Of a stretch of 64,000 nucleotides of DNA, positions 19,705 through 35,143 are shown piece by piece. The stretch is from contig CAVZPC010000008.1 of assembly GCA_963777005.1 (NCBI GenBank), positions 1,781 through 65,780 on the forward strand. Reading direction: 5' to 3'. The position numbers were made by a program, and so were the translations under genes. The DNA is from an uncultured Acidobacteriaceae bacterium (GTDB taxonomy: Bacteria; Acidobacteriota; Terriglobia; Terriglobales; Acidobacteriaceae). The notes beneath the pieces are model-generated. The model ran no database searches, was not told the origin of the DNA, and saw only the letters and a list, made by a program, of their open reading frames with translations. The first letter of the stretch is position 1. The number at the start of each line of letters is the position of its first letter.

Positions 19705-20103
19705 TCAGTTTGCCGCTTTCCATTCTTTCTGCAACGCGCTGAGAAAATCGGTGCTTCCGCTGGAACGCAGGAATTCGTAGTCCTCAATCATGGCGGCGGT
19801 GCCCACACGCAAGGACGGCAGCGGTGATTCCGAACGGACGACCCGGGCAGTGAAGCGGACGCGAACCGCATCGGTCAGCGTAATGTGGGGCGGGAAGGTG
19901 AGCGTGACTTCACAAGCGGTGCCCTCGGGGAGAGGCCGGTCCAGATAAAAAAAAACCCCACGCGCGCTCACATTCTGAGTTTCGGTTTGAAATTCGCTTT
20001 CTCCCGTGAGACGGACTACCGCCGGAAGGCGCATATCAAAGCGCCGCATCGTCCGCCGTTCCTGAGAGCTGTTTTGCATCGGTGGCGTATTTTCCGAAAG
20101 CAT
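19705..20103 (-). CDS. Stand-alone PilZ-domain protein (predicted c-di-GMP receptor)
   Basis: RxxxR (RRTMRR) and N.S..G (NVSARG) motifs at PilZ spacing. The start may be at an internal Met. Confidence 0.75.
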   Translation of the reverse strand: MLSENTPPMQNSSQERRTMRRFDMRLPAVVRLTGESEFQTETQNVSARGVFFYLDRPLPEGTACEVTLTFPPHITLTDAVRVRFTARVVRSESPLPSLRVGTAAMIEDYEFLRSSGSTDFLSALQKEWKAAN

Positions 20104-20694
20104 TTATTCCCCAAGAAAACCACATCTGATGCAGAACGGAATCGACAGCCAAGGCTGGAAGACACAAGTCCTGCCCAGGTTCTCGGGGCGGGCTTGATAA
20201 CTTCACTTTATAGAAACGCCCGTGGTTTGCAAGAGCAAAAAGACTCATGGAACTGAGTCGGTAAACGCCCAAGCGGCCCTGGAGGATATTTGGAGGAGCC
20301 GGTGGCCGCTTTGATTCCGGAGATAACGGAGCAATCCCGATGCCATCTGTCGTGCGACATGCTGGTTGATTGTTGAGAAGAATCAGAGCTTTTATCAGAC
20401 CCACCGTCGTGTGGGAACACCTGCCTGCAACGCTTTGCAGAAATCGTCCTAGTTCGCTTCACCTGCAGATCTCTTCATTCCACTTTCGTGCCAGGTTGCG
20501 GCATCTTTCCTTGGTCACGGGCGCATCTGAGGGGTTGGAGCACGCTCGGCAGCGGCAGCCTCGCTTGACTTGGCTATCCGTCAGATGTTTAAGTAGTTGT
20601 TTATTTTCCGCCAGTTCCAAAGTGACATGTCAGCAGCGGGCGGTATCGCCGGCGCCGGGGTAAAAACTCGCGCTTCGGCTCTACTCTCTCCAGA

Positions 20695-23600
20695 ATGATT
20701 AGTGTGCGTCGGAGGAAAAGCGTAATGGGAAATGGCCGTGAGGGGTTGATGGGGAAGACTTCGGGAAGCAGTCAGCAGCGGGTCCGGATCGCGGGAGCGG
20801 TTGTGGTTTTGCTTTTGGCAGCCTGCGGGATACTGGGCTCGGGCTTCCGCCACAGCTCTCAGAAAACGTCGGCAAATGTTCCGGTCTCTCCGATTTCAGC
20901 TGCTCTCGGCAAGGCTCATGCGAACGCGAAGCCGGATGCTCGCGCCCTCCTCAACCAGCTCCCGATGATCTTCGAACCCAACCAGGGCCAGGCCCCTTCT
21001 GGTGTGAAATTCGTTTCGCGAGGGTCGGGATACAGTCTCTACCTGGACCCGACTGGAGCGGTGTTGGCCATGCAAACGGCGATGCCTGCGCTGCACGGTC
21101 ACAGTGGCCTCCGTCGGAGAGTGCAGTCGGTGCGCATGAAGCTGGTCGGTGCTGGTCCGGCGACGACGGTTGCAGGAAGCGTACCGCTCCCCGGCAAAAG
21201 CAATTACTTCATCGGCAATGATCCGAAGAAGTGGCATACCGGCATTCCGCAGTTTGCCGGGGTTCACTATCAGAACGTTTATCCGGGAATCGATCTGGTC
21301 TTCTATGGCAGCCAGGGCCACCTGGAATACGACTTCAAAGTGGCACCCGGTGCGGACGCGTCGCAAACCGAGTTGCAGTTTGACGGCGTAAGTGAACTGC
21401 AATTGACCGGCGGAGATTTGATTCTCAAGGGCGCGGGCGCCGATGTGCGCTTGCAGGCTCCGCGGGTGTACCAAAGTGTTGCTGGCCGGCAGCAGCCAGT
21501 TGAAGGGCACTTCGTTCTCCGGGCGGGCAATCGAATCGGCTTTGAGATTGGCGCGTATGATCGCACACGCGAACTGGTGATCGATCCAACCATCAGCTAC
21601 TCCACTTACTTTGGCGGCGCGAACGGCGCTGAAACCTCTCCGTCGATCGCGGTGAACGGTAACGTGATCTACATCGCAGGATCTACCACTTCCAACGATC
21701 TTCCGCTCCCAACCAGCGTGACGCCCTACCAAGCCACTCTGAACGGAGCACAGAACGTTTTCATCGCGGAGCTTAGCCCGACACTGGGCGTTGGTGGGTT
21801 GGTCGCTATGACTTACCTCGGCGGGAACGGAACCGACACCATCGCCGGCAACCCCGGAGTTGGTGACTCTGCAGGGCTGGCAGTGGATAATGTGGGAAAT
21901 GCCTACGTCGGCGGCACAACCACTTCGACGAACTTTCCCACGATCAACGGATACCAGAGCGGGCCTGAAGCCGGTAGCACGGGAACTTCCCACGTATTCG
22001 TCAGTCTGTTGAATCCCACCCTTTCGGGACTCATTTATTCGACTTATCTTTCGGGTAATGGCACGGATGCGGCGAGTGCTTTGGCCATTGACAACAATGG
22101 GGACGCTTTTGTGCTGGGCACCACGAGTTCCACCGATGTGGCTACCGGCTTTCCCGCCACCTTGCTGCCTCCGGCGTATCAGAAATCGTCCTTGGCGAGC
22201 CAGCAGTTCTTTGTAACCGAAATCAATACCAAAACCATCGGGACGGGAAGCCTGGCTTACTCGACATATTTCGGCGGTGGAAATCCCAGCACGGGCGCTG
22301 TAGTGGTTGGCGGGGGCATCGCGGTCGACACTACAGGAAACGTCTACTTCAGCGGCACCACGAATTTCTTCAACAGCGGCGAAGGCACCAATGGCCAAGG
22401 TGGGCTGACGACGGGAGATTTTCCCATCACGAACGCCTACCAGCCTTGCCTCAACACACCTCCTCCAGTCACGATCAGCTATCCTGTCAGTTGCGGAACA
22501 ACTACCGCAGCGACTGATGCTTTTGTGGCAAAGCTGAATCCGAACAATGCCCAGACCGGCGCCACGCAACTGCTTTTTTCCACCTACTTCGGTGGTGCCA
22601 ACAACGATTCCTCCACCGGCCTTACGATTGATACCACTGCGTCGGCCATCTACATAACCGGCGCAACCAACACCGGATCGACCAGCTCGACGGGCTTCAA
22701 CATTCCCACCGGAGCCGGAGAGTTTCAGCCCTGCCTGAATGCTCCCGGGGTAACGTTGGCGGCATGTACGGCTCCCAACACCACGTTTACCGATGCTTAT
22801 GTGGCCAAGTTCACGAATCCCACCGAGACCTCCGGATCAACCACCACCAATGCAGTGGGTCTCAGCTATTTTTCTTACCTTGGGGGATCCGGAAACGATA
22901 GCGGTTTGGCGGTTGCGGTCGATACCGGGGCGGGAGCGCTGGTGACCGGCGAGACTAATTCAACAGATTTCCCGGCCTCGACGGGAGCAATCCAGACTAC
23001 ACTCAAAGGCACGCAGAACGCTTTCTTTGCGCACATTGATACGACCACTTTGTCGGGTACGAACACGGTTGGCTCGTACGCCACTTATTTCGGCGGAAGC
23101 GGGGTGGATCGCGGCACCAGCATCACGGTGGATCAGGCCCTCAATACTTATTTTGCCGGTGATACGACTTCTACGAATTTGCAGGTGCAAGGAGCGTTTC
23201 AACCGACCTTCCAGGGGACCACCATGGACGCGTTCGCGGTGATGCTGCGCCCCGTGAACAGTTTGTGTATTACCTGCGTGGCGCCCGTGTACTCTCCGGG
23301 CTCGCAAGTGGTGGGCGCGGGCAATCCGATTTCAATCACTTTTACTGTCACGAACGAAGGGCCGGACCTGGCCACGAACATTACCGTGGGCGCACAGCTT
23401 TCCACCGGCATATCGGCTACTTTTACCAGCGCTTCTGGCGGGGCGGGTAGTATTTGCAGCCTTCCCACCGGTACGACAGCGGCTTGCCTGATTCCCGTTC
23501 TGCAGTCGGGTTCGATCGCGACCGTGGCATTTTCTGTAACCCCGACTACGGCTGGGACTGGTTCGATTACGGTGACGGCCACGAACGCGAACAACACGAA

Positions 23601-24153
23601 TCCGATCGTCACCACAACGGCCTCGTTCACAGCTACCAATTTTTCCATCGCGATCAATCCTTCCAGCCAGACCGTGGTTGCGGGCAACACCGCAACCTAC
23701 TTCCTGCAGGTCAATCCGGCCATCACGTTTGGAAACAACGTGTCGCTGACTTGCGGTTCTACCCCGGTAGGTGCAAGTTGCGGATTCACTCCCGCTACTC
23801 TTATGTTCAATGGCCCGGGTGCCCAATCGAGCACGCTCAACCTGACGACAACGGCCCGACCTCCCTCCGTGATCAGTTCTCTTCAGTGGGGAGGGCGATT
23901 TTACGCTCTCTGGCTCATGGTTCCGGGGATGGCCGTGGTCGGATTGGGAGGCAAGAAACGCCGACGGAATCGCCTTCTCGGCCTGCTTGTGATTCTGGCA
24001 CTATTCTCATTCATCGTCCCGTTGCCGGCTTGCAGCAAGGCGAAGCAACAGCCAGTCGTGACCGGAACTCCTGCGGGCACATATTCGCTCACGGTGACGG
24101 CGACTTCGGGCTCCTACACGCAGACCGTCGGGTTCAGTTTGACGGTGCAGTAG
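20695..24153 (+). CDS. Giant cell-surface protein: N-terminal beta-rich domain, seven SBBP beta-propeller repeats, DUF11/Ig-like domains and a C-terminal membrane hairpin
   Basis: 1152-aa ORF with a signal/anchor (AGAVVVLLLAACG). It has seven repeats of the form STYFGG...D.A.GIAVD..GN.Y..G.T.S..FP. A CITC... TNEGPDLATN segment is DUF11-like, and FSIAINPSSQTVVAGNTATY is Ig-like. The start could be 20725 or 20749. Confidence 0.85.
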   Translation: MISVRRRKSVMGNGREGLMGKTSGSSQQRVRIAGAVVVLLLAACGILGSGFRHSSQKTSANVPVSPISAALGKAHANAKPDARALLNQLPMIFEPNQGQAPSGVKFVSRGSGYSLYLDPTGAVLAMQTAMPALHGHSGLRRRVQSVRMKLVGAGPATTVAGSVPLPGKSNYFIGNDPKKWHTGIPQFAGVHYQNVYPGIDLVFYGSQGHLEYDFKVAPGADASQTELQFDGVSELQLTGGDLILKGAGADVRLQAPRVYQSVAGRQQPVEGHFVLRAGNRIGFEIGAYDRTRELVIDPTISYSTYFGGANGAETSPSIAVNGNVIYIAGSTTSNDLPLPTSVTPYQATLNGAQNVFIAELSPTLGVGGLVAMTYLGGNGTDTIAGNPGVGDSAGLAVDNVGNAYVGGTTTSTNFPTINGYQSGPEAGSTGTSHVFVSLLNPTLSGLIYSTYLSGNGTDAASALAIDNNGDAFVLGTTSSTDVATGFPATLLPPAYQKSSLASQQFFVTEINTKTIGTGSLAYSTYFGGGNPSTGAVVVGGGIAVDTTGNVYFSGTTNFFNSGEGTNGQGGLTTGDFPITNAYQPCLNTPPPVTISYPVSCGTTTAATDAFVAKLNPNNAQTGATQLLFSTYFGGANNDSSTGLTIDTTASAIYITGATNTGSTSSTGFNIPTGAGEFQPCLNAPGVTLAACTAPNTTFTDAYVAKFTNPTETSGSTTTNAVGLSYFSYLGGSGNDSGLAVAVDTGAGALVTGETNSTDFPASTGAIQTTLKGTQNAFFAHIDTTTLSGTNTVGSYATYFGGSGVDRGTSITVDQALNTYFAGDTTSTNLQVQGAFQPTFQGTTMDAFAVMLRPVNSLCITCVAPVYSPGSQVVGAGNPISITFTVTNEGPDLATNITVGAQLSTGISATFTSASGGAGSICSLPTGTTAACLIPVLQSGSIATVAFSVTPTTAGTGSITVTATNANNTNPIVTTTASFTATNFSIAINPSSQTVVAGNTATYFLQVNPAITFGNNVSLTCGSTPVGASCGFTPATLMFNGPGAQSSTLNLTTTARPPSVISSLQWGGRFYALWLMVPGMAVVGLGGKKRRRNRLLGLLVILALFSFIVPLPACSKAKQQPVVTGTPAGTYSLTVTATSGSYTQTVGFSLTVQ

Positions 24154-24224: not shown

Positions 24225-25631
24225 TCAGGCGCCAGCTGAGAGTTTGTGGTGGCTCTTGGCTTCGGCAATTCCGTATTGCCGAATCTTATAAAGCAAAGCC
24301 TTGTAGCTGATCTGAAGAAGCCCGGCGGCCTGTTTACGATTCCAGTTGGTTTGCTCGAGAGCCTGCCGGATGGCTTCGCCCTCGGCTTCGTCCTTGGCGG
24401 TGCGGGCCAGCGACTTTAATCCGCCACCTGCTTCTTTTACGGCTGGATCTGAGCCTCCAGCGCCTCCATTGCCGTCATGGCGCGGCTGCAATTCCGTGGC
24501 GGCTAAATTCTCGTCCCCCAGGATCAAGTATCGCTTCAGAAAATTGTTCAACTCCCGCAAGTTGCCGGGCCAGGAATATCTCTGGCACGCCTCCAGCAAA
24601 GGCGGCGAGAGTGGAAGCTGAGGCCGGGCATACTGTTCTGCCATATGCGTCATGAAATGCTTTAAGAGGATCGGAATTTCTTCCTTGCGATCCCGTAGCG
24701 GGGGCAATTGCAAGGTGAACGCGTTCAGCCGGTAGTAAAGATCTTCTCGCAGCCGCTTAGTGGCGAGTGCCTGAGGAATGTCGATGTTGGTGGCCGCCAG
24801 AATGCGCACGTCGACTTTGATCACAGAACGGCTTCCCAACCGAGAGAATTGCTGGTCCTGCAATACGTGCAACAATTTGGCTTGCAGGGCTGGCGGCATC
24901 TCGCCAATTTCATCCAGCAGAATCGTGCCCTTGTTGCAGAGCTCAAACTTGCCGGGCTTGGCGTGCGTCGCACCGGTGAAGGCGCCGGGCTCGTAGCCGA
25001 ACAATTCGCTCTCCAGCAGGTCCGCGGGAACGGCAGCGCAGTTGACCTTCAAGAAAGTTCGATGCGCCCGCGGTGAGAGCTTGTGAATCAGGCGGGCGAG
25101 CACTTCCTTGCCGGTGCCACTCTCGCCCAGCAGCAATACCGGAATATCGACATGGGCGACCAGCGCCGCTTGCGAGCGTATTTTTCGCATGGCAGGACTA
25201 GCGGCGACGAAAAATACATCGTCGGCAACTTCCTCGACTTCGCCACCCACCGGACCTTTTCCGTGACCAAGGCACTGATGAATCACCGCATCGAGTTCTG
25301 ACTTCTGAAAGGGTTTGGTCAGGTAGTCGTGTGCGCCCAGTTTCATGGCTTGCACGACCTTGCGCGTGTCGCTGACGCAGGAAAGCATCACCACCTTGGC
25401 GCCGGGACGCTTCTGGCGAAGCTGTTCCAGAGTCTCCAAGCCGTCGATACCGGGCATGAGCACGTCGAGCAGAACCAGATCCGGCTCCATGCCTTTTTCC
25501 ACACGCTGCAATGCCTCTTCACCCGTCGAAGCCGTTTCTACTTTGTAGTCGTCGACTTCGAGCAGCGTCCGGATATAGCGGAGCATGGCGGGCTCATCAT
25601 CGACCAGAAGAATCTTAGCAGTATCGCTCAT
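24225..25631 (-). CDS. Sigma54-dependent response regulator (REC - AAA+ - Fis HTH, NtrC family)
   Basis: REC domain (ILLVDDEP...LLDVLMPG), Walker A (GESGTGKE), GAFTGA motif and a C-terminal HTH (NRKQAAGLLQISYKALLYKIRQYG). Confidence 0.9.
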   Translation of the reverse strand: MSDTAKILLVDDEPAMLRYIRTLLEVDDYKVETASTGEEALQRVEKGMEPDLVLLDVLMPGIDGLETLEQLRQKRPGAKVVMLSCVSDTRKVVQAMKLGAHDYLTKPFQKSELDAVIHQCLGHGKGPVGGEVEEVADDVFFVAASPAMRKIRSQAALVAHVDIPVLLLGESGTGKEVLARLIHKLSPRAHRTFLKVNCAAVPADLLESELFGYEPGAFTGATHAKPGKFELCNKGTILLDEIGEMPPALQAKLLHVLQDQQFSRLGSRSVIKVDVRILAATNIDIPQALATKRLREDLYYRLNAFTLQLPPLRDRKEEIPILLKHFMTHMAEQYARPQLPLSPPLLEACQRYSWPGNLRELNNFLKRYLILGDENLAATELQPRHDGNGGAGGSDPAVKEAGGGLKSLARTAKDEAEGEAIRQALEQTNWNRKQAAGLLQISYKALLYKIRQYGIAEAKSHHKLSAGA

Positions 25632-26560
25632 CGACCCTTTCCTTTAACGGCGGGTGTGGAGGATGGTTTGAAGGGAATGAGAAATGAGAACTTGCAGCCA
25701 GCGCCGGGATCGCTTTCCAGCCAGACTTTTCCACCCATGCCCTGGACCAGGCGGCGGACGATCGCGAGACCCAGGCCCATGCCTTCCTGATTGTCATTGT
25801 TTGGCAGGCGGAAGAAATCATCGAAGACTTCCTGATGAAACTCCGCCGGAATTCCGGGACCGGTGTCGGATACGCTGACTTTCACGGAATTGGGTTGAGA
25901 ATTCATCTGCCGGCGCCGTTCGCCGGTGGAGGCTGGCTGAGCAGCAGCGCGGCGCTCCCACATATAGGGCTCGGCGTGCAACCAAACCGTGCCGCCTTGA
26001 GGAACGAACTTGAAGGAATTCTCCAACAAATTCGAAATGACGCGCTCCAGCTTCGGAAGATCAAACTCGAATTCCGGCAGTTTGTCATTGGCCAGAAAAT
26101 AAAGCGCTAATCCTTTTCCTTGAAATCGCGTCGACCACAGACGGCAGACCTCGGAGAGGCACTCGTTGATGTTGCCGACGGCAAACTGCATCTTCAGTCC
26201 GCCCGTCTCCAAGGCGCTGTAAGTGAGGAAATCCTGAATGAACTGCTGCAGCCGTTTACCGCTCGCCTCCATGTCGTGGAGCACTTCTCGCTGCCGCTCG
26301 CTGATCGGTCCCAGTTTTTCGCTCTGCAGCAATTCGACGTATCCATTCAGAATCGCGAGAGGTGTTTTGAGATCGTGAGCGGCCGATCCAAGGGCGTTCG
26401 TGGTGCGTTGAAATCGCTGTTGCAGTTCGGAATAGGCCTGTGGGAGATCCGCCGAGCTAGGCATTCCCGACCCGGAAGCCGAACGAGTCGACTCGTTCAC
26501 TCTTCCTTTGCCAGCCTCGGGAGCGCACACATTCTTTTGCACGGTGACCATAAGGGGCAC
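25628..26560 (-). CDS. Soluble histidine kinase (HisKA + HATPase_c only, no TM or sensor domain)
   Basis: H-box (AAHDLKTPLAIL), N box (NLLENSFKF) and G boxes (DTGPGI, GMGLGLAI). There is a 4-nt ATGA overlap with the response regulator gene. Confidence 0.85.
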   Translation of the reverse strand: MPLMVTVQKNVCAPEAGKGRVNESTRSASGSGMPSSADLPQAYSELQQRFQRTTNALGSAAHDLKTPLAILNGYVELLQSEKLGPISERQREVLHDMEASGKRLQQFIQDFLTYSALETGGLKMQFAVGNINECLSEVCRLWSTRFQGKGLALYFLANDKLPEFEFDLPKLERVISNLLENSFKFVPQGGTVWLHAEPYMWERRAAAQPASTGERRRQMNSQPNSVKVSVSDTGPGIPAEFHQEVFDDFFRLPNNDNQEGMGLGLAIVRRLVQGMGGKVWLESDPGAGCKFSFLIPFKPSSTPAVKGKGR

Positions 26561-26863
26561 GGCGGTCTAGCACAGAGGGAGGATAACGGAGCGAATGATC
26601 TGAATCTATTAAGAAAATCGTAAGCTAGGTTACTTTTCATTGTCAACGAAAAATGCAACCTGATTACCCAAGAGTAGCAAAACCTTGCACTATACAAGGG
26701 TGGTGCGGAGACGCTTGCCATCCGAGGAAGTGAAGGGGCGCAAGGCTCGAAGCTGATGGAAACACAGTACTTTGCTTGGTTGTCGCGGTCCGGGGCGGGG
26801 ATAAGGGTGGTTTCATCGGGTTTCATAGGACTCGCTTCCTCAATGATCCGGTTAACCCCTAAT

Positions 26864-26880
26864 TTGGCCCCAAAGCTGCT
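26864..26880 (+). promoter_or_regulatory. Candidate sigma54 -24/-12 promoter (TTGGCCCCAAAGCTGCT)
   Basis: GG at 26866-67 and GC at 26878-79 have the exact N10 spacing. The element lies 39 nt upstream of the PilZ gene start. This rests on the motif only. Confidence 0.35.
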
Positions 26881-26918
26881 CCCTATTCTGGCGTAAATCG
26901 GATAAAGAAGGGGCGTGA

Positions 26919-27299
26919 GTGATCGCAAAGACTCCCATGGCAGAGCGCCGGCGGTGGCCGCGCTTGCCTCTGGCCATACCCGTCTTTGTCAGGATCCAGC
27001 TGGAGGAAGATAAGGAGTATTTGGAGTTCGCCACTGCCCTGAATGTATCTGCGGGCGGCATGTTGGTGGCGGTGCGACGTTCCCTCCCCGCGACGGCGGA
27101 AGTTTCCCTCGAAATTCCCAGCGCACCTTTAGCTGCTCAATCCGCTCTGCCGACGGCCTCGCGCACCTTGCGTGCCAAGGTATTGCGAACCGAGCATGCC
27201 GAAGCCTACAACCTGGTTGGCGTGAAGTTCTTCCGGCCACTGGTGAGCGACCGCGTCCCGATCAAAGTACTCCGAAGGAAACAGGCTTCCATGGTATAA
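26919..27299 (+). CDS. Stand-alone PilZ-domain protein
   Basis: RRRWPR and NVSAGG motifs. The ORF has a GTG start at 26919; an alternative ATG lies at 26937. Confidence 0.75.
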   Translation: MIAKTPMAERRRWPRLPLAIPVFVRIQLEEDKEYLEFATALNVSAGGMLVAVRRSLPATAEVSLEIPSAPLAAQSALPTASRTLRAKVLRTEHAEAYNLVGVKFFRPLVSDRVPIKVLRRKQASMV

Positions 27300-27461
27300 G
27301 GTTTTGGTATGGAGAGGCTTTTCTTTTATTGCCCATTCCGCTAACCTGTACATAACTCCCCCACCGGTTATTAGACATCTCCTCCGAATAATCTTTAGTA
27401 AGTTGCTTTTCATCAATTACATAGGCTAGCGTTTACACTGAAGCAGCCCGCTCCTTCGTGT

Positions 27462-27479
27462 TTGGTTCTCCGGATGCAC
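27462..27479 (+). promoter_or_regulatory. Candidate sigma54 -24/-12 promoter (TTTGGTTCTCCGGATGCA)
   Basis: GG at 27464-65 and GC at 27476-77 have N10 spacing. The element lies 41 nt upstream of the activator ATG. This rests on the motif only. Confidence 0.35.
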
Positions 27480-27517
27480 GCGCTCCGTAGCCTGTGCCGG
27501 AGAGCCGATAAAGCCTT

Positions 27518-28585
27518 ATGAGCACTTCACATCTAGTCAGTTCCCTGGTGCAGCCTCTGGGAGAAATGCCTCCCGAGTCGATTGTTTTTGGGAACACCGA
27601 GGCCATGCGGGCTTTGCGTGAACGGCTTGACAAATTGGCCAGCGCAAATGTTCCAGTGCTGATCGAGGGAGAGAGTGGCACTGGCAAGGACATCATCGCA
27701 CGCATGATCCACGCTGCTTCCCCGTGGAAGACTGGCCCGTGGGTGAAGGTGAATTGCCCGGCGATACCTGGAACGCTGCTCGAGAGCGAGCTCTTTGGCT
27801 ACGAAAAAGGGGCTTTCACTGGTGCCTTCGGCACAAAGCCTGGCCGCGTGGAGATGGCTCACCGTGGCACTTTGTTCCTGGATGAAATCTCCGAACTCGA
27901 CATGAGTCTGCAGTCGAAACTGCTGCAGTTGCTGCAGGACGGACAGTTCTGCCGCATCGGCGCGCAGGAAGACAAGAAAGTTGAAGTCCGCGTGGTGTGC
28001 GCCACCAATCGAAAGCTGGAAGAGGAAATCGCCAACGGCACGTTTCGCGCGGATCTCTTCTATCGCATCAACGTCGTAAATCTTCACATGCCGCCGTTGC
28101 GCGAGCGGGCTTCCGATCTGCCGGATCTCATTGCTTATTTTCTCGATCGCTATAACCGGAAATTCAACTCGCGTGCTAAACCGCTCTCTACCGAGTTGAT
28201 GAACTCACTCAAGAAGTATCATTGGCCAGGGAACGTTCGCGAGTTGGAGAACCTGATCAAGCGCTACGTGATCCTGGGCACCGAGGAGGCGATCTCCGGC
28301 GACTTGCGGCCGCACCAGCCGGATTTCTTCAGTGCAGATATCGCCGTCGATGGGCCGATCTCGCTGAAGAAGATTACTCGCCAGGCTGTGCATGAATTAG
28401 AACGCAAGATTATCCTGAGGGTGCTACAGCATCATCATTGGAATCGGAAACAGGCGGCTCGAGCGCTCAACATCAGCTATCGAGCGCTGCTATATAAAAT
28501 CCGCGACGCCGGTCTGCCTTCGAACCGTACCGCTCGCCGTCCTAAGGAAGACCCGGATGAGCAGGACGTCGTCGTTCTGGATTAA
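27518..28585 (+). CDS. Sigma54 enhancer-binding protein without an N-terminal regulatory domain (PspF-like architecture)
   Basis: 355 aa. Walker A (GESGTGKD) lies about 50 residues from the start. GAFTGA and Walker B (LFLDEI) are present, with a C-terminal HTH (NRKQAARALNISYRALLYKIRDAG). Confidence 0.9.
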   Translation: MSTSHLVSSLVQPLGEMPPESIVFGNTEAMRALRERLDKLASANVPVLIEGESGTGKDIIARMIHAASPWKTGPWVKVNCPAIPGTLLESELFGYEKGAFTGAFGTKPGRVEMAHRGTLFLDEISELDMSLQSKLLQLLQDGQFCRIGAQEDKKVEVRVVCATNRKLEEEIANGTFRADLFYRINVVNLHMPPLRERASDLPDLIAYFLDRYNRKFNSRAKPLSTELMNSLKKYHWPGNVRELENLIKRYVILGTEEAISGDLRPHQPDFFSADIAVDGPISLKKITRQAVHELERKIILRVLQHHHWNRKQAARALNISYRALLYKIRDAGLPSNRTARRPKEDPDEQDVVVLD

Positions 28586-28596
28586 GTCCTCGGGTT

Positions 28597-28980
28597 CTAG
28601 ATTAGGCCTTGGCGGATTTTCGAAAGAAATTCATCGGCATCGGCGCGCGCCTTCTCAATGAGCTTTGCATTGCCACCCGATTCCGTAGCGACTTCGTGCA
28701 GCACAAGTTCCACCGCATCCTTCGGCTTGAAACCCCGCATAATCAAAATTCGCGCGCGGTTTGCGAAAGCGCTCCCGGTATCCGGTTTCTTGTTCGCCGC
28801 AGGAACGCTCACTTCAGCTGCGCACTGATGCTCGCGAAATTTCGCTGCGGCGAGGCGGTCATATGCTGCCATAGCTTCTTCCTCTCCACTTAACAGCGTC
28901 GGTACCGCGAATCGCCATCCACAGTTTGAACACGACCAGCCGGCCGCATCACCCTCGATCCAGATCAAAGAGCGTTCCAT
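28597..28980 (-). CDS. Hypothetical protein with an N-terminal W.CS.C.W motif
   Basis: 127-aa ORF starting 42 nt downstream of the PilZ gene stop on the same strand, so probably co-transcribed. No recognisable domain. Confidence 0.6.
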   Translation of the reverse strand: MERSLIWIEGDAAGWSCSNCGWRFAVPTLLSGEEEAMAAYDRLAAAKFREHQCAAEVSVPAANKKPDTGSAFANRARILIMRGFKPKDAVELVLHEVATESGGNAKLIEKARADADEFLSKIRQGLI

Positions 28981-29022
28981 ATCGCAACCTCATCGCGTTT
29001 CGCAAGGAAGGCGGGGTGGCGT

Positions 29023-29373
29023 TCACTGCAGGAGTTGCAGCGTCTTGCATAACTGAGTGATCGTGTCTCGCTGGTAAGCGGTCGGATTCATAAATTCCAC
29101 TCCATAACTGAAACCGCTGCGGTTTCTAACCAATCCGCGAATCGCCATCACTCGTGAGTTGTAAGGCAGGGAAAACTCCATCAGAACGATGATGCCCGGC
29201 TCAAGATCGCGCGGCATGAACAGTCGCAGGCCGCCTTGGCTTACATCGCTGGCTTCTCCGTGGAAGCAGAGCGTTTCACCGTTCGTATTCAGAGTAATCT
29301 TGACACGAATCTTAACCTGGTAGCGGTCCCAGCGCCGCTGCTGCGGCCGTGTTGTCTCCATCGGTCCCATCAC
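29023..29373 (-). CDS. Stand-alone PilZ-domain protein
   Basis: RRWDR and DVSQGG motifs in a 116-aa ORF. Confidence 0.75.
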   Translation of the reverse strand: MMGPMETTRPQQRRWDRYQVKIRVKITLNTNGETLCFHGEASDVSQGGLRLFMPRDLEPGIIVLMEFSLPYNSRVMAIRGLVRNRSGFSYGVEFMNPTAYQRDTITQLCKTLQLLQ

Positions 29374-29586
29374 CTGTACTTCGCAAAGAACGTGTACGCG
29401 ATGTAGTTATTCTCAACAAGCGGGAGAAATCAGCAATCCGGTTTACGCAATTGGCTCCGCGTGTTATTGGTCTCCAAGGTACACAGTCGGATGGATAAAT
29501 CATAGTGAATCGTTTCACTAACAAAATTGCTCTTGAACTCCGCCATCCCGGAAGATAAGGTACATGGAACCGTACGACGAGGGGCG

Positions 29587-30633
29587 ATGTTCTCAGAAGG
29601 CATTCACCAGTCTAATCAAAATCTGCTTACATATCCCTTGGTTCTCGAAACCACGGATGTGGAAGAGGCGGCGTCCGTGCTGGCCGAGTCCGCCGTCCCC
29701 TATCGCTCAGAATTGATCGGTGCCAGGCCGGCGTTTTCCACCCAGATTTTTGGGGCTCAAAGTCCGCGAATGCATTTGTCGACGGTTAAAACTACTGGGG
29801 CCATGAAGGTCCAAGCCCAGTTGCCCGACGATTCCTACGCCGTTGTTCTCTCCGTGTCCGGGGATGTGGAGCATCGCGTGGCCGACGAGATCGTCCCGGT
29901 GCGTTCGGGGTGGGGATTAGTGCAATCGCCATTGCAGGTGGTCGAAGCCCGGACTCCCGAGCGCTTCGAATTGCTTTTTCTAAGACTCAGCCGCGAGAAT
30001 TTGGTTCAGGAATTGGAGAAGATGCTTCTGCGGCGGATTAACTCTCCCTTGGTCTTTTCTCCCGGTTTCAATCTGAGGACCGAGGCAGGACAGCGCTTTC
30101 GCCGCCTGGTGTTGAGTCTGTGCAGTCACCTCGAACGGATGCGTGCCGCCGGCAGCGATCCAGAGGGCGAGTCAGACAGTGAACAAGAGAAGCAATACGA
30201 GCTGGCTGCGCGCGCACTGGAGAATGATCTGGTGGCGCTCCTGCTAGAGGCGCAGCGCCATAACTATACACGCTTGCTGGTTCGCTCTCGCTATGCAGGT
30301 CCCTGGCAGGTGCGTGCCGCCGAAGAGTACATGAGCGCCAACGCACATCTGGCGCTGTCTCTGGGCGATATCTGCATGGCCGCAGGGGTGAGTTCGAGAA
30401 CCCTGCAACACAGCTTCCAGCGAAAACGCGGATACACTCCCATGCAGTTTCTGCGCCGACTGCGCATGGAGCGCGTGCGTGACGATCTTGCCCAAACGAA
30501 TCAGGTCACGACCGTGACCAAAGCCGCCTCGCGTTGGGGCTTCCTGCACTTCGGCCGCTTCGCCGCGGAGTACCAGGCGCGTTTCGGGGAGAAACCGTCC
30601 GAGACCCTGCAGCGCTCCCGAACGCAAAGTTAA
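29587..30633 (+). CDS. AraC-family transcriptional regulator
   Basis: C-terminal double HTH (LSLGDICMAAGVSSRTLQHSFQ ... ASRWGFLHFGRFAAEYQARFGEKPSETL). The start is uncertain; the ORF is open from 29527. Confidence 0.8.
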   Translation: MFSEGIHQSNQNLLTYPLVLETTDVEEAASVLAESAVPYRSELIGARPAFSTQIFGAQSPRMHLSTVKTTGAMKVQAQLPDDSYAVVLSVSGDVEHRVADEIVPVRSGWGLVQSPLQVVEARTPERFELLFLRLSRENLVQELEKMLLRRINSPLVFSPGFNLRTEAGQRFRRLVLSLCSHLERMRAAGSDPEGESDSEQEKQYELAARALENDLVALLLEAQRHNYTRLLVRSRYAGPWQVRAAEEYMSANAHLALSLGDICMAAGVSSRTLQHSFQRKRGYTPMQFLRRLRMERVRDDLAQTNQVTTVTKAASRWGFLHFGRFAAEYQARFGEKPSETLQRSRTQS

Positions 30634-30654: not shown

Positions 30655-32988
30655 CTAGCCGCGTAGCTCGGATAGCGCCTTGCGCGCTTCGCTGTTATTC
30701 GGATTGATCCTCAAGGCGCGCTCCAGTTGCTGTCGCGCTTGCGCTGGCTGGTTCACTTTCTGATAGGCGAGCCCGAGATGAAGGTGAACGGTCGGATCGT
30801 CAAACTCGCCACGCTTCTCGTTGAGCCGCAGCGACTCCTGGAACAGATCAATCGCAGATTTGTACACACCCTTCTGGTAATAAGCCAAACCTAAGGTGTC
30901 TGCGACATTCGAGGAGTTTGGCATCCCACGCCGCGCCGTCTGGGCCATCGCCAGCGCGACATCAACATTGCCGTCGCCGTTGCGGCTTATCTGCTGGAGG
31001 ATCAAGTAGGCCAGATTGTTGGAGGCCAGGGGATTGTCAGGCTGAATTTCCAGCGCCTTCTGGTACATCGCTTTCGCGTTAGTCCAATCCTGTTGCGATT
31101 CGTACATCTCTCCCGCAAGAATGTAGAATCCGATGTCCCGGGGATGATCCTTGATCGATTGTTGATACGTGGCTAGCGCCTGGCTGACAGAGCCCTCTGC
31201 GGCCTGCACCTGCCCTAACTTCAAAAGCGCATCGGAATTATTTTTATCCAGTTCGATTGCCTTGCGCAGCGCAGCCTCCGCGCCGCTCAGGTCTTTTTTC
31301 TGAGACAGCGCCGACCCTAAGAGATCGTAGAAACCGCTGCTGCCGGGCGATTTGGCGATCTGCGCCCGGGCTGCGGCGACGGCTTGATCAGGCTGCTTTT
31401 GAGTCAGATAGACGTTCATGATTCCCTGCAGGGCGTCGGTGGACGTCGCATCCTTATCGAGCGCCTGGTAGAAAAACTTAATTGCCTCCGGGTACTGTTT
31501 CTGCGCCTGATAAAGATCCCCCATGTATATGTAAGGAGCCGGACTTCCGGGGGCCATCCCCATGGTTTTGGTGAGGTCTTGCTGGGCATCGGAATATTTC
31601 TGGCGATTCATCTCGACCAGAGCGCGCATCAGGTAGCCGTCGGGCGCGTAAGGCGCAACCGTAATGATCTGTTGCGCGGTTTGCATAAGGGCATCCAGAT
31701 CGCCGCGGCTCCTTTCCAGTTCGGCCAGCGCGCGTTGCGCCTCCATGAGGTCGGGCCGGAGCCGCGCGGCCTCGCGCAATTCCGACTCGGCACGCGCATC
31801 GTTGTGCTGCATGTCAAAAGCGAGACCCAGTTGATAGTGAGCCACGGCGTTATCTGGTTCGTTATTGATCGCCTGCTGCAGTGAGTCCACTGCCCCGCCC
31901 GCATCGTTGCGGCGAAGCTGTATCTGCCCACGGTAGACCAGCACCTCCACATCATGCGGGTTTGCTTTCAGAACTTCGTCGTTCAGCTTGGTGGCTTCCT
32001 CCAGACGGTTTTTCAGGATCAGAAGCTGTATATAGTTCTTCTTCACCTGCATGTCCTTGGGATGGTCGTTATACAGCGACGAGTATTCAGCCGTAGCTTT
32101 GTCCAGGTCGCCGGTGGCGTAATAAAAGTCTCCCAGCATGCGGTAAGCTTCGGAATTATCGGAAAGATCGCTCTTGGCCTGCTTCAGTAAGGCCTCAGCC
32201 TCAGCTTTCTTGCCTTCGGACATGTAAAGCCGCACCAGCGCCTCGCGAGGTGCGGGATCCTTGGGAGCAAGTTCAATCGCATGCTTGAATTGTTGTTCGG
32301 CCTCGGGCAAGCGATTGCGCTCCTGGTAGAAGCCTCCCAGAGCCAGTTGAGCGTTCGTGGCTTTGGGATCGAGTTGGGCGGCTTTCTTGAAATTAGCTTC
32401 GGCTTGATCGAGCAGATTCGAGCGCAACTGGAGAAGCGCCAGGTCTAGATAAGACTCCGAGCGGTTAGGATCGGCCGCGATGGCTTTCTGCAACTCCTGC
32501 AGCGCCGCTCCGACATTGCTCTCAGCTGCATAATAGTCAGCCCACGCCTGGAAAACTTTGGGGTTCTGGGTTTGTTTCTCGCGCAGGAGATCGAGGTGTG
32601 TGCGTGCCTGTTTCAATCGGTCATTGTTGATCGATCCGTCAGGGTTCCTCGAATTCCCAACCAAAAGATTGGCGAGATCGATGTGGGCCTGATAGTTGTC
32701 AGGAGTGACGTCTACCACTTGCGAGAGTTCCTGGAAGGCCTGGAAGCCATTGCCGAGTTTGAGATAAGTTTCTCCCAGTTTGAAACGTGCCTGGGCGAAC
32801 CGGGGGTCCAATTTCAGTGCGTTGAGGTACTGGATTTTGGCTTCGTTGTACTTGCCTTTATCAAAATAACGGTCGCCACTCTCCAGATATTTCTGCTTGC
32901 GGATATTGGGATCGCGCGAACATCCAGTAAACAGAACGGTGATGACAAGCCCGACAACCAACAGACGGGCGACCACAAAGCAGCTCAT
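30655..32988 (-). CDS. TPR-repeat lipoprotein
   Basis: Lipoprotein signal MSCFVVARLLVVGLVITVLFTGC with a GGAGAAG RBS, followed by about 20 TPR-like repeats across roughly 777 aa. Confidence 0.85.
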   Translation of the reverse strand: MSCFVVARLLVVGLVITVLFTGCSRDPNIRKQKYLESGDRYFDKGKYNEAKIQYLNALKLDPRFAQARFKLGETYLKLGNGFQAFQELSQVVDVTPDNYQAHIDLANLLVGNSRNPDGSINNDRLKQARTHLDLLREKQTQNPKVFQAWADYYAAESNVGAALQELQKAIAADPNRSESYLDLALLQLRSNLLDQAEANFKKAAQLDPKATNAQLALGGFYQERNRLPEAEQQFKHAIELAPKDPAPREALVRLYMSEGKKAEAEALLKQAKSDLSDNSEAYRMLGDFYYATGDLDKATAEYSSLYNDHPKDMQVKKNYIQLLILKNRLEEATKLNDEVLKANPHDVEVLVYRGQIQLRRNDAGGAVDSLQQAINNEPDNAVAHYQLGLAFDMQHNDARAESELREAARLRPDLMEAQRALAELERSRGDLDALMQTAQQIITVAPYAPDGYLMRALVEMNRQKYSDAQQDLTKTMGMAPGSPAPYIYMGDLYQAQKQYPEAIKFFYQALDKDATSTDALQGIMNVYLTQKQPDQAVAAARAQIAKSPGSSGFYDLLGSALSQKKDLSGAEAALRKAIELDKNNSDALLKLGQVQAAEGSVSQALATYQQSIKDHPRDIGFYILAGEMYESQQDWTNAKAMYQKALEIQPDNPLASNNLAYLILQQISRNGDGNVDVALAMAQTARRGMPNSSNVADTLGLAYYQKGVYKSAIDLFQESLRLNEKRGEFDDPTVHLHLGLAYQKVNQPAQARQQLERALRINPNNSEARKALSELRG

Positions 32989-33205
32989 TTCTTCTCCACG
33001 AAAGACGCGAACACGCATACGATTGCAAACTCAAGGAATGCTACAACGAGCGACCGCAACAAACCCTACATCATGCCTAGCGGACATTCATTGTACGTGA
33101 ATGATTGCGCTCCAGTGTGAATTGAATGTGACAACTAAGGTGTTGGCTGGCCCATTTAGAGGGTTGCTGAAGGGCGCAAGTGGTTTGAAATCAATGGGTG
33201 AGAAC

Positions 33206-33252: not shown

Positions 33253-34881
33253 CTAAGTGCCTGTCTTCCGGGCTGGCGGCTGAGCCGGCACCCCTAATGC
33301 TACGGCAACCTGGCTCCCGATCGGCGACCCCAGTCCGGAGCATGCATCCCAGCCCGGGCCGGCGGAATAGGCCCCATTGTTGCCGGAGATGATGTCACTG
33401 AAATCGGCGGCGGTCCCCGTGTTCTGATAAAGCAATGGGTTGATAAATCCCGCCGATTTTCCGAGGCTCTCGTTGATCAGCGCGATCAATCCCGCCCAGA
33501 GCGGTGCTACAGCGCTCGTTCCTCCGATCACGTCAGCCTTGCCGTCAACGAGGGTAACGTATCCAGTGGTCGGATCGGCGTCTCCCGCAACGTCCGGAAC
33601 CCCGCGTCCAACATGTCCACCGGGATTCGCCGAAGGTGGAACTCCCGCCGCACTCTGGTAACTCGGAAGCGGAAACACGTCACTGATGCCGCCTCCGGTT
33701 GCACCTTCATTGTTGGCGAGTTCGTTCCACACCGTTTCGTTCGTGATGTTATTGCCCGACGCCACCAGCTGTGTGCCTCCACAGGCCAGTACATTGGGAC
33801 TGGATGCTGGGAAATCCACGTGGTTTAGCCCATCGGTTACACCATCAGTCGAACCGTCATCTCCCGCCGCCACGCAAACCGTCACGCCCATTGCAGCTGC
33901 AGATTGGAAGGCCTCGTCCATCGACGTCATGGCCTGCTGGGTCCAGGAAGATTCGGGACCACCCCAACTGATCGACACGATGGAAGGGTTGTTCGTGCTG
34001 TCGTGCACCGCAGTGGTGATCGCATTCAGGAAGCCAGCGTCCGTGTTCTCGGCAAAATAAGCGATAATCTTTGCCCCCGGCGCAATCGCCCCGGATACCT
34101 CGATATCTAACATCACTTCGCCATCGGGCCCGTTCGGGTCTCCCGTAGGATTGTTGCTGCCGTTTCCTACCGAGACTGCAGAAACGCTAGGAGTTTTCGC
34201 CAGCTGGAGTTGACTCCAGTAGCTGCTTAGATCCGTTGGATTGAACCCACCTCCAAGTTCGATCAGGGCGATGCATTCTCCGGATCCATCCACGCCGGTG
34301 GGATAGTCGTAGAGAGTGGCGACTTGGATCGGCGTGTAGGAGAGGTTTACGACCGCGGCACGAGCGCCGGTTCGTCCGTGCCGTCTACGAAAATGCGGTT
34401 TGGCTTGGGGACGGTTATCCAGGCCAAAGACACCTTCGATCACATCCTGCAAATCCGCGGGAATATGGATTGGTCCAGTACGACCCCGATACCTTCCGGA
34501 CGGATGATCATATTCTTTTAGTTCGACGCCAAATGCCTGGTTCATGGCTGTGACGGTCCCGGACAGGATGACCGTCCGTCGTGCCACGCTCTTTTCCTTC
34601 ACTTTGAGTTTGTGTTCGCGGGCAAACGCCTCCACGCGGGCAATGCCCTCCGGATCAGCGCCGTGGTGTTTTTCGAACTCTCCGCGCGTAAAAATGGCGC
34701 GCTTCTCAATGGGCTTGGTAAATTCCTTCGGACTGACGGGCGGTTTTTTCCCGGCACGCGATCGCAAACGGATGGTCACGTCAACTGTCTCATTGGGATT
34801 CGCTGGGCCGACTTCGCGCGCTCCTTCTAACGGCGCTCGCTCACTACCGGCAAGTGGAAGACGATTCTTCGGAGTAGACAT
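33253..34881 (-). CDS. S53-family serine peptidase (sedolisin / kumamolisin-like) with pro-domain
   Basis: ATG at 34881 behind AAGGAG. The pro-kumamolisin-like N-terminal part is followed by a catalytic region containing GGTSAVAPLWAGLIALINE. No signal peptide is visible. Confidence 0.85.
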   Translation of the reverse strand: MSTPKNRLPLAGSERAPLEGAREVGPANPNETVDVTIRLRSRAGKKPPVSPKEFTKPIEKRAIFTRGEFEKHHGADPEGIARVEAFAREHKLKVKEKSVARRTVILSGTVTAMNQAFGVELKEYDHPSGRYRGRTGPIHIPADLQDVIEGVFGLDNRPQAKPHFRRRHGRTGARAAVVNLSYTPIQVATLYDYPTGVDGSGECIALIELGGGFNPTDLSSYWSQLQLAKTPSVSAVSVGNGSNNPTGDPNGPDGEVMLDIEVSGAIAPGAKIIAYFAENTDAGFLNAITTAVHDSTNNPSIVSISWGGPESSWTQQAMTSMDEAFQSAAAMGVTVCVAAGDDGSTDGVTDGLNHVDFPASSPNVLACGGTQLVASGNNITNETVWNELANNEGATGGGISDVFPLPSYQSAAGVPPSANPGGHVGRGVPDVAGDADPTTGYVTLVDGKADVIGGTSAVAPLWAGLIALINESLGKSAGFINPLLYQNTGTAADFSDIISGNNGAYSAGPGWDACSGLGSPIGSQVAVALGVPAQPPARKTGT

Positions 34882-35143
34882 AGATCTCCTTTCGATTGGG
34901 CCGAGCCTGGAGTCGAACCGAAGCAGAGAAGCATTACCACAGGAGTATTTTCGCAAACCACCCAGGAAAAGGAGCCTAGCCCTCTGCCATCCCCGAGATC
35001 AGTGCTGGCCCGTTAGTTGGTTGGAAAGTAGCAGTAGACCGGCGACGACGCAAGTGGTTTCTCGTGCTTGTTACGAAAAACGAACAGCAAGTCCTAAGTT
35101 AAGACCAGAGATATCTGTCGTTAAACTGTGCCGAGATGGAACG

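Follow-up and report, generated by a model that had tools for sequence, protein, structure and literature searches.

The present analysis concerns a regulatory gene cluster on a 64,000-nucleotide (nt) stretch of contig CAVZPC010000008.1 (assembly GCA_963777005.1, positions 1,781 to 65,780 of the forward strand) from an uncultured Acidobacteriaceae bacterium, the whole of which we refer to as the window. The cluster comprises a gene for a sigma-54 activator without input domain, preceded on the same strand by a gene for a single-domain PilZ protein (PilZ1), and, divergent from both, the genes of a histidine kinase and of a second sigma-54 activator containing a REC domain (REC-activator). A first-pass annotation of the window had suggested that stand-alone PilZ proteins, sensing cyclic diguanylate (c-di-GMP), may act as the missing input of the input-less activator in trans. 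Comparison with related genomes reveals that kinase, REC-activator, PilZ and input-less activator form a conserved sigma-54 regulatory cassette of the Terriglobia (Acidobacteriota). The genes, predicted promoters and conserved blocks of the locus are compiled in Table 1.

Table 1. Features of the cassette and its surroundings, in window coordinates
Feature	Coordinates	Strand	Remarks
Surface protein	20695..24153	+	1152 aa; DUF7948, SBBP beta-propeller repeats, DUF11, C-terminal 'lipo-invert' anchor (Pfam; NF058595 79.7 vs cut-off 37)
REC-containing sigma-54 activator	24225..25631	-	Response_reg, Sigma54_activat, AAA_lid, HTH_8; GAFTGA present
Histidine kinase	25628..26560	-	310 aa, soluble; HisKA and HATPase_c only (Pfam); divergent from PilZ1
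Conserved block of ~85 nt, kinase/PilZ divergent region	26612..26697		candidate operator or enhancer; holds 15-nt motif TAGGTTACTTTTCAT
Sigma-70-like promoter of kinase/REC-activator operon	26617..26646	-	TTGACA-N18-TACGAT; hexamers in near-invariant columns, 81 species
Candidate sigma-54 -24/-12 promoter of PilZ1	26864..26879	+	TTGGCCCCAAAGCTGC; conserved GG/TGC
PilZ1, single-domain, subfamily A	26919..27299	+	GTG start; RxxxR and NxSxxG
Conserved block of ~40 nt, 30-70 nt upstream of activator promoter	27393..27432		candidate enhancer; holds second 15-nt motif copy TAAGTTGCTTTTCAT
Candidate sigma-54 -24/-12 promoter of input-less activator	27462..27477	+	TTGGTTCTCCGGATGC; conserved GG/TGC
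Input-less sigma-54 activator	27518..28585	+	355 aa; 23-residue N-terminal peptide, AAA+, lid, HTH_8
Lineage-specific insertion	28597..30633		~2 kb; three genes between activator and PrsT-like gene
127-aa GWSCSNCGW protein	28597-28980	-	unit with PilZ2 lies 11 nt past activator stop
PilZ2	29023-29373	-	59.9 bits vs cut-off 22.5; RRWDR, DVSQGG
AraC-family regulator	29527-30633	+	part of inserted block
PrsT-like TPR protein	30655..33018	-	TIGR02917 386.3 vs cut-off 312.2

The coordinates of the input-less activator correspond to the longest open reading frame (ORF) possible for this gene, in which 23 residues precede the AAA+ domain. A Pfam scan of the protein detected Sigma54_activat (PF00158, 223 bits) from residue 24 onwards, AAA_lid_14 at residues 195-260 and HTH_8 (PF02954, 44 bits) at residues 292-329, and no REC, GAF, PAS or V4R domain. 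The Walker A motif (GESGTGK, residues 51-57), the GAFTGA motif (residues 98-103) and the Walker B motif (LFLDE) are intact in all 81 orthologs. Domain and motif scans agree in this with the first-pass description of a protein that runs almost straight into its AAA+ domain, carries GAFTGA, ends with a Fis-type helix-turn-helix (HTH) and has no input domain. By its predicted architecture the activator is a bacterial enhancer-binding protein without an N-terminal regulatory domain (type Ic), an arrangement known from PspF, HrpR/S and LafK (Francke et al. 2011, PMC3162934). Across the 81 orthologs the N-terminal 23 residues are conserved nearly as well as the AAA+ core and the C-terminal tail varies freely. 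The activator reaches none of the NCBIfam equivalogs, the models for PspF, NifA, NtrC and PrsR all staying far below their cut-offs; for PspF the scores were 254.8 vs 443.55 (TIGR02974) and 219.7 vs 529 (NF008622), and the scanned neighbours of the activator included no PspA-like gene. Of the 120 closest clusters at 90% identity, nearly all contain proteins of about 339-381 amino acids (aa; one of 413 aa) with a domain list identical to that of the activator. A scan of 1.84 billion representatives returned many further input-less clusters of about 340-375 aa with 44-58% identity, whose short and variable N-terminus closes on a semi-conserved LPP(D/E)xxxFG motif, and a profile search seeded with distant input-less activators fell back to the same clade and gained few new lineages. 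We also considered a FleQ-like nucleotide pocket in the activator, for which LFRS, an RN following Walker A and ExxxR have been listed as motifs (PMC10333796). This candidate was ruled out by the motifs, LFRS and the post-Walker-A RN each occurring in 0/81 orthologs; the sole ExxxR of the activator (EMAHR, residue 112) lies outside the lid.

PilZ1 consists of a single PilZ domain (PF07238, 38.7 bits vs a cut-off of 22.5) with the motifs RRRWPR and NVSAGG, and the alignment of its orthologs favours the GTG start. The first pass had placed this gene 218 bp upstream of the activator on the same strand, which the ORF and Pfam scans confirm; the gap is exactly 218 bp in the window and ranges from 205 to 300 bp across the 80-species clade introduced below. 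Among the 81 PilZ1 orthologs, the first (D/N)xSxxG match reads NVSAGG or NISAGG in 77, and the first RxxxR match is of the R..W.R type (RRWPR, RQWPR, RKWPR, RRWSR and similar) in at least 68; the rest are mostly artefacts of an upstream extension of the ORF. With its binding motifs intact, PilZ1 is a candidate receptor for c-di-GMP, the binding of which is predicted. A sequence search returned no relative of PilZ1 in the PDB.

The first-pass picture of the module was incomplete in that it overlooked the adjoining kinase and REC-containing sigma-54 activator. Since both genes overlap by 4 nt, they form an operon. The HisKA domain of the kinase starts at about residue 57, and no sensor or transmembrane domain is recognisable before it. 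The REC-activator is presumed to be the first-tier activator. Kinase and REC-activator represent a simpler source of input in the form of a transcriptional cascade, which renders the sigma-54-dependent autoregulation considered in the first pass unnecessary.

To define how far this arrangement extends, we compiled a close set of 80 loci, each from a distinct GTDB species. All belong to Candidatus Sulfotelmatobacter-like Acidobacteria, and the identity of their activators to that of the window is 82-97%. PilZ1 and the kinase are present in 80/80 of these loci and the REC-activator, 84-98% identical and at the same position, in 79/80; the remaining contig stops before the REC-activator. REC-activator and kinase, followed by the divergent PilZ1 and input-less activator, keep their order, orientation and approximate spacing throughout the close set. 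Adjacency of PilZ and activator genes in related genomes, on which the first-pass proposal depended, hence holds for the upstream PilZ in all 80 close species.

We then turned to a distant set of nine Terriglobia loci (L081-L089) with Pfam-labelled neighbourhoods, in which the activator is 56-69% identical and in one case (L084) more than 72%. Eight of these loci are informative; L087 ends at a contig edge. All four genes are clustered in six of the eight (L082, L083, L084, L086, L088 and L089; activators 62-69%, L084 >72%), and these clusters occur in two layouts, either divergent like the window or with all genes co-directional. A PilZ gene lies directly upstream of the activator in five of the eight informative loci (activators 59-69%, one >72%) and is separated from it by one gene in a sixth. 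In rearranged loci the slot upstream of the activator is filled by non-orthologous PilZ subfamilies. Two PilZ subfamilies can be distinguished at the distant loci, A (which includes PilZ1) and B, both of which keep RxxxR and (D/N)xSxxG. The co-directional relatives differ further in their kinase, which measures 408-413 aa, about 100 aa more than in the window, and carries an extra N-terminal region of about 150 aa with a faint PAS match in L086. In the co-directional loci L083, L086 and L088, a GGDEF gene adjoins the cluster; this gene and a second PilZ, the closer homolog of PilZ1, are oriented divergently to the kinase gene. The clade of the window appears to have lost the N-terminal region of the kinase, the PilZ of subfamily B and the GGDEF neighbour.

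The distant loci also connect the cassette to an extracellular polysaccharide. In seven of the nine, a polysaccharide operon starts 1-42 nt after the activator, which is therewith the first gene of the operon. The operon content comprises Poly_export, an XrtA-type chain-length determinant, a pepcterm ATPase, a tyrosine autokinase and a TIGR03013-type transferase; at L089, the scores were 280.9 vs 278.85 for TIGR03007, 300 vs 324.5 for TIGR03015 and 161 vs 180 for TIGR03027. In the window the polysaccharide operon is not adjacent, and the PrsT-like gene is the only XrtA/PEP-CTERM marker left beside the module. One of the distant loci deviates in its regulators. L081 has no kinase pair; its activator is preceded by a weak PilZ-like ORF (16.9 bits) and by a NusG paralog. 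The latter (L081:5423-5983), which is NusG/RfaH-like, lies 18 nt upstream of activator and operon in place of the kinase/REC-activator pair and suggests that in this lineage the long operon is controlled by antitermination.

Upstream of both PilZ1 and the activator we found TTGG-N9-TGC elements in the right orientation and with GG-N10-GC spacing, as would befit -24/-12 promoters of sigma-54; the rpoN gene for sigma-54 lies outside the window. They end 39 nt (PilZ1) and 40 nt (activator) before the respective start codons, in keeping with the 39-41 nt of the first pass. The pattern alone proves nothing: the window contains nine matches to TTGG-N9-TGC vs about 8.4 expected, i.e. chance level, and 283 loose matches to TGGCAC-N5-TTGCW vs 293 expected. 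The two sites are above chance because their bases are conserved across species. When the intergenic regions of the close set were aligned (81 species), TTTGG and TGC proved to be 98-100% identical in both regions, the 9-nt spacers 70-83% and the remaining intergenic DNA 51-56%; in the PilZ1 promoter, GG and TGC are conserved in 81/81 species and the spacer varies. We extended this count to the nine distant loci, ten with the window, by searching for TGG-N9-TGC within 250 nt upstream of a gene. The element precedes the activator in 8/10 loci (chance expectation 0.12 per region; p ~1.5e-6) and the adjacent PilZ gene in 5/8 loci (expectation 0.12; p ~1e-3), equivalent elements preceding PilZ in L082, L083, L084 and L088. 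Upstream of the kinase gene, a GG-N10-GC element was found in 0/6 loci.

The same alignment uncovered two further conserved blocks, one in the divergent region between kinase and PilZ1 and one upstream of the activator promoter (Table 1), which have a 15-nt motif in common. One copy (TAGGTTACTTTTCAT, 26626-26640) is located within the spacer of the sigma-70-like promoter of the kinase. The other copy (TAAGTTGCTTTTCAT, 27399-27413) ends about 50 nt upstream of the -24 element of the activator, a plausible position for an enhancer. One of the two activators may use the motif as an operator or enhancer common to both regions. An Rfam search returned nothing, either for the conserved intergenic blocks or for the window in full, so that the blocks do not correspond to any known riboswitch or small RNA.

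A link between PilZ and this type of activator is provided by protein fusions. P0217, 48% identical to the activator of the window, is a fusion of PilZ with Sigma54_activat, lid and HTH_8, although as called it is without the RxxxR arm. In Myxococcus xanthus, MXAN_2902 is likewise a PilZ-bearing enhancer-binding protein, the PilZ domain of which is predicted not to bind c-di-GMP (PMC8316039). A metagenome scan with P0217 did not recover the fusion's own locus. The nearest metagenomic relatives of P0217 are input-less and accompanied by a divergent stand-alone REC gene, not by PilZ. Such an arrangement was seen in a high-GC lineage (L091-L095 and L102), in which input-less activators with N-termini of 8-45 aa stand divergent from a stand-alone REC gene of about 130 aa (MEIMIVDDEPQVAEVL...). 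This hints at 'split' activators, in which the regulatory domain is encoded as a separate gene, as a wider theme.

Taken together, we tentatively propose, with a confidence somewhat short of even, that the cassette governs the production of an XrtA/PEP-CTERM-type exopolysaccharide with c-di-GMP as an input, and that PilZ is the regulatory subunit of the activator. In this model, kinase and REC-activator would be made constitutively from the sigma-70-type promoter, and the phosphorylated REC-activator would fire both sigma-54 promoters, that of pilZ and that of the input-less activator gene. In the relatives, the promoter of the activator would also drive the operon for polysaccharide export and biosynthesis. 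The input-less activator would then serve as a second-tier factor for further sigma-54 promoters, and the PilZ co-produced with it would be a detachable c-di-GMP-sensing subunit that binds either the AAA+ core or the 23-residue N-terminal peptide and so gates ATPase activity or oligomerisation, in parallel to NifL for NifA and PspA for PspF. The pairing of promoters and activators, the binding of c-di-GMP, the contact between PilZ and activator and the sign of the PilZ effect (activation or inhibition) are points that we infer here.

We regard the activator as the single most likely target of PilZ, at a likelihood not quite reaching one half, because a PilZ of either subfamily lies directly upstream of it in both layouts, because a PilZ-like ORF may persist at L081 where the kinase pair is absent, because PilZ-activator fusions exist and because the arrangement mirrors nifL-nifA and pspA/pspF. 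Several observations weigh against this assignment. No PilZ lies upstream of the activator at L085, and fusions are rare, with one among the 150 closest representative clusters and none added by a custom PilZ hidden Markov model. A single-sequence AlphaFold model of PilZ1 reached a predicted local distance difference test (pLDDT) score of 46, too poor for a fold search, and both -24/-12 elements have the status of predicted sigma-54 promoters. An input-less activator whose transcription is tightly controlled through sigma-54 may do without regulation at the post-translational level, and the data would be explained almost as well by a cascade in which PilZ and activator make no contact. Furthermore, subfamily A is always divergent from the kinase gene and adjoins the activator only in the layout of the window; in the co-directional layout it is a subfamily-B PilZ (MTERRxARRYDL...) that precedes the activator, and the subfamily-A-like PilZ adjoins the GGDEF gene. 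The oldest neighbour of PilZ1 is therefore the kinase. The latter is an equally plausible PilZ target since it is itself sensor-less in the clade of the window, consisting of HisKA and HATPase_c only. PilZ1 might thus be the missing sensor of the kinase, with the c-di-GMP-bound PilZ docking either to the kinase itself or to REC in the first-tier activator and so setting the level of phosphorylation; the input-less activator would then be a constitutively active second tier, set only by the amount made. A precedent for this is HapZ, a PilZ adaptor that acts on SagS in Pseudomonas aeruginosa. The divergent pairing of a subfamily-A PilZ with the kinase in both layouts (window, L084, L089, L083, L086 and L088) and the presence of the common 15-nt motif in the kinase promoter speak for such a role. 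So does evolutionary rate covariation, computed over 69 species, which is no lower for PilZ1 and kinase (0.32) than for PilZ1 and activator (0.30), with 0.14 for PilZ1 and REC-activator; because the values for kinase and activator are alike, however, this measure does not single out the partner of PilZ1. PilZ genes of two subfamilies immediately upstream of the activator in both layouts, the PilZ-like ORF that L081 keeps with the activator in the absence of a kinase pair nearby and the existence of PilZ-activator fusions (PilZ-kinase fusions were not searched for) argue against the kinase as target, which we consider unlikely.

PilZ1 could also be a c-di-GMP receptor for the polysaccharide machinery or another target, and merely be co-expressed in the sigma-54 regulon. 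The PilZ domains of Alg44 and BcsA gate polymerisation post-translationally, such control of exopolysaccharides is the most common known role of PilZ, and in the relatives PilZ heads the export and biosynthesis operon with a sigma-54 promoter of its own. Yet PilZ1 stays with the regulators in an 80-species clade without an adjacent operon, PilZ is always found on the regulator side of the locus and never amid the biosynthesis genes, and it is fused to activators in some proteins, so that we deem this explanation improbable. Finally, the activator may receive its input without PilZ, either by direct binding of c-di-GMP in its AAA+ domain or through mixed oligomers with the REC-activator. FleQ and FlrA bind c-di-GMP directly, and HrpR/HrpS and FleQ/FleT form mixed oligomers. 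The two activators of the cassette are always neighbours, and their partial rate covariation of 0.46 is the highest of any pair. Moreover, BerB is described as an input-less, c-di-GMP-binding activator of an exopolysaccharide cluster (PMC5552954). A PilZ-free input nevertheless has to contend with the lack of the FleQ-type LFRS and RN motifs in all orthologs, and two proteins of one family would be expected to covary in any case. The HTH identity between the two activators (0.48-0.66) does not discriminate either, as it falls within the range of an unrelated-activator control (mean 0.43, maximum 0.69). We rate this possibility as slightly less likely still and retain the activator as the preferred target of PilZ.

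Downstream of the activator, the window carries a convergent unit of a second PilZ gene (PilZ2) and the gene of a 127-aa protein, which had led the first pass to describe the activator as bracketed by PilZ genes. This unit is real in the window. In the 80 close loci, however, the genes of the 127-aa protein, PilZ2 and the AraC-family regulator are present in only 7, 6 and 5 cases, respectively, and in several relatives without the block the PrsT-like gene comes directly after the activator. Since the block is rare in relatives, the bracketing is incidental and reflects a local insertion. What stands of the original PilZ-in-trans reading are the upstream adjacency, the motifs, the promoters and the fusions; the PilZ2 unit, being lineage-specific, drops out of it, and the kinase/REC-activator pair has to be added. 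The 127-aa protein has no Pfam or NCBIfam match, and its single-sequence model (pLDDT 65) is too poor for a fold search; in the model, CxxC appears to be surrounded by a small N-terminal sheet of three strands, and a bundle of helices comes next. In about half of the close relatives, the 8 kb beyond the activator contain the PrsT-like gene. Directly upstream of it on the same strand, a sedolisin/kumamolisin-type peptidase (Pro-kuma_activ and Peptidase_S8) is encoded at 33253-34956 (-), which may be co-transcribed with the PrsT-like gene.

On the other side of the cassette, the surface-protein gene is found in the same position at most of the 80 close loci (tblastn). We examined it as a possible sigma-54 target and rejected it, since it is preceded by a conserved sigma-70-like promoter and by no GG-N10-GC element. 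The former is a strongly conserved TTGACT-N17-TTTAAG. A conserved GC-rich leader of about 110 nt likewise precedes the gene (both within 20540-20694), and no Rfam family matches the leader. Separately, an alignment of 67 species shows a conserved TGGCACGAAAGTGGAA on the minus strand (20478-20493), in which the -24 half-site is perfect and the GC at -12 is missing. This element lies upstream of small minus-strand ORFs (19705-20404).

We compared the cassette to already characterized systems. In nifLA, pspF/pspA and hrpRS/hrpV, the gene of the trans-acting partner adjoins that of the activator. Both pspA and the nifLA operon are transcribed from sigma-54 promoters, the latter being fired by the REC-type NtrC. 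NifL-NifA, PspA-PspF and HrpV-HrpRS resemble the cassette in that an activator is governed by a separate protein, and our proposal follows the same two-tier logic as NtrC-nifLA. It differs in that the candidate partner is an unrelated PilZ domain and that the signal would be c-di-GMP. Stand-alone adaptors such as HapZ-SagS, MapZ-CheR1 and FlgZ-MotC share with PilZ1 the principle of a single-domain PilZ that relays c-di-GMP in trans. We know of no stand-alone PilZ adaptor whose target is a sigma-54 activator. Together with NifL-NifA, PspA-PspF and HrpV-HrpRS, the nearest functional counterpart is found in Burkholderia cenocepacia, in which BerB, described as a sigma-54 activator without sensory input domain, binds c-di-GMP and controls an exopolysaccharide cluster (PMC5552954), and is itself bound and sequestered in trans by the c-di-GMP-signalling protein RpfR (PMC9684580). 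Here, too, an input-less activator of polysaccharide genes is controlled in trans in a manner linked to c-di-GMP, as proposed for the cassette. BerB, however, binds c-di-GMP itself, its partner is a PAS-GGDEF-EAL enzyme and not a PilZ protein, and phylum and polysaccharide system are different. For FleQ, FlrA, VpsR and EpsI/Nla24, c-di-GMP acts on an NtrC-family AAA+ factor and thereby switches matrix polysaccharide genes (PMC10333796; PMC8316039). In these the nucleotide site lies in their own AAA+ or REC domain, whereas the activator of the cassette is without the FleQ LFRS and RN. MXAN_2902 and P0217 have PilZ before Sigma54_activat, lid and HTH_8 as well, but within one polypeptide instead of split genes.

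A further system to be considered is that of the Proteobacteria, in which PrsK, PrsR and PrsT, i.e. a kinase, a REC-type sigma-54 activator and a TPR protein, are encoded at XrtA/PEP-CTERM loci (Haft et al. 2006, PMC1569441) and PEP-CTERM genes possess sigma-54 promoters with an upstream motif, governed by PrsK/PrsR (PMC1569441). The PrsT-like gene of the window passes the TIGR02917 cut-off. The PrsR equivalog TIGR02915 has a cut-off of 502.6, below which both the REC-activator (350.3) and the input-less activator (300.4) remain. The PrsK equivalog TIGR02916 is not among the best 25 of 82 matches, and the kinase fails the test for a PrsK transmembrane kinase, being short and soluble in contrast to the membrane-bound PrsK. 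Because the membership tests for PrsR and PrsK fail, the cassette is not the proteobacterial PrsK/PrsR system, which moreover has no PilZ and no second, input-less activator. Searches of the open-access literature turned up neither a PilZ protein that controls an enhancer-binding protein in trans nor the acidobacterial cassette; the first pass, too, knew of no such PilZ circuit.

The broadest form of our hypothesis is that a single-domain PilZ serves as a detachable c-di-GMP-sensing subunit of an input-less sigma-54 activator and couples c-di-GMP and a two-component signal to a PEP-CTERM-type matrix across the Terriglobia, which in this generality we hold to be rather doubtful. If true, PilZ would constitute a fourth kind of trans-acting regulator of enhancer-binding proteins after PspA, NifL and HrpV, and the first PilZ adaptor that targets the sigma-54 transcription machinery. 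If instead the sensor-less kinase is the target, the cassette would represent a second instance of the HapZ type of mechanism, in a distant phylum. The hypothesis is directly testable; conservation of synteny and promoters is strong, and the key mechanistic step is one that we infer. To sigma-54 research, the cassette offers an activator without sensor domain whose control can be put to the test, and to c-di-GMP research it suggests PilZ targets of a new class. Terriglobia rank among the most abundant bacteria of soils, and their extracellular polysaccharide is important for soil aggregation and for survival. To our knowledge, the regulation of extracellular polysaccharide in Terriglobia is essentially unstudied. 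The cassette, which joins c-di-GMP, a two-component signal, two sigma-54 activators and an XrtA/PEP-CTERM operon (the operon and GGDEF in relatives), is a concrete and conserved candidate for its control.

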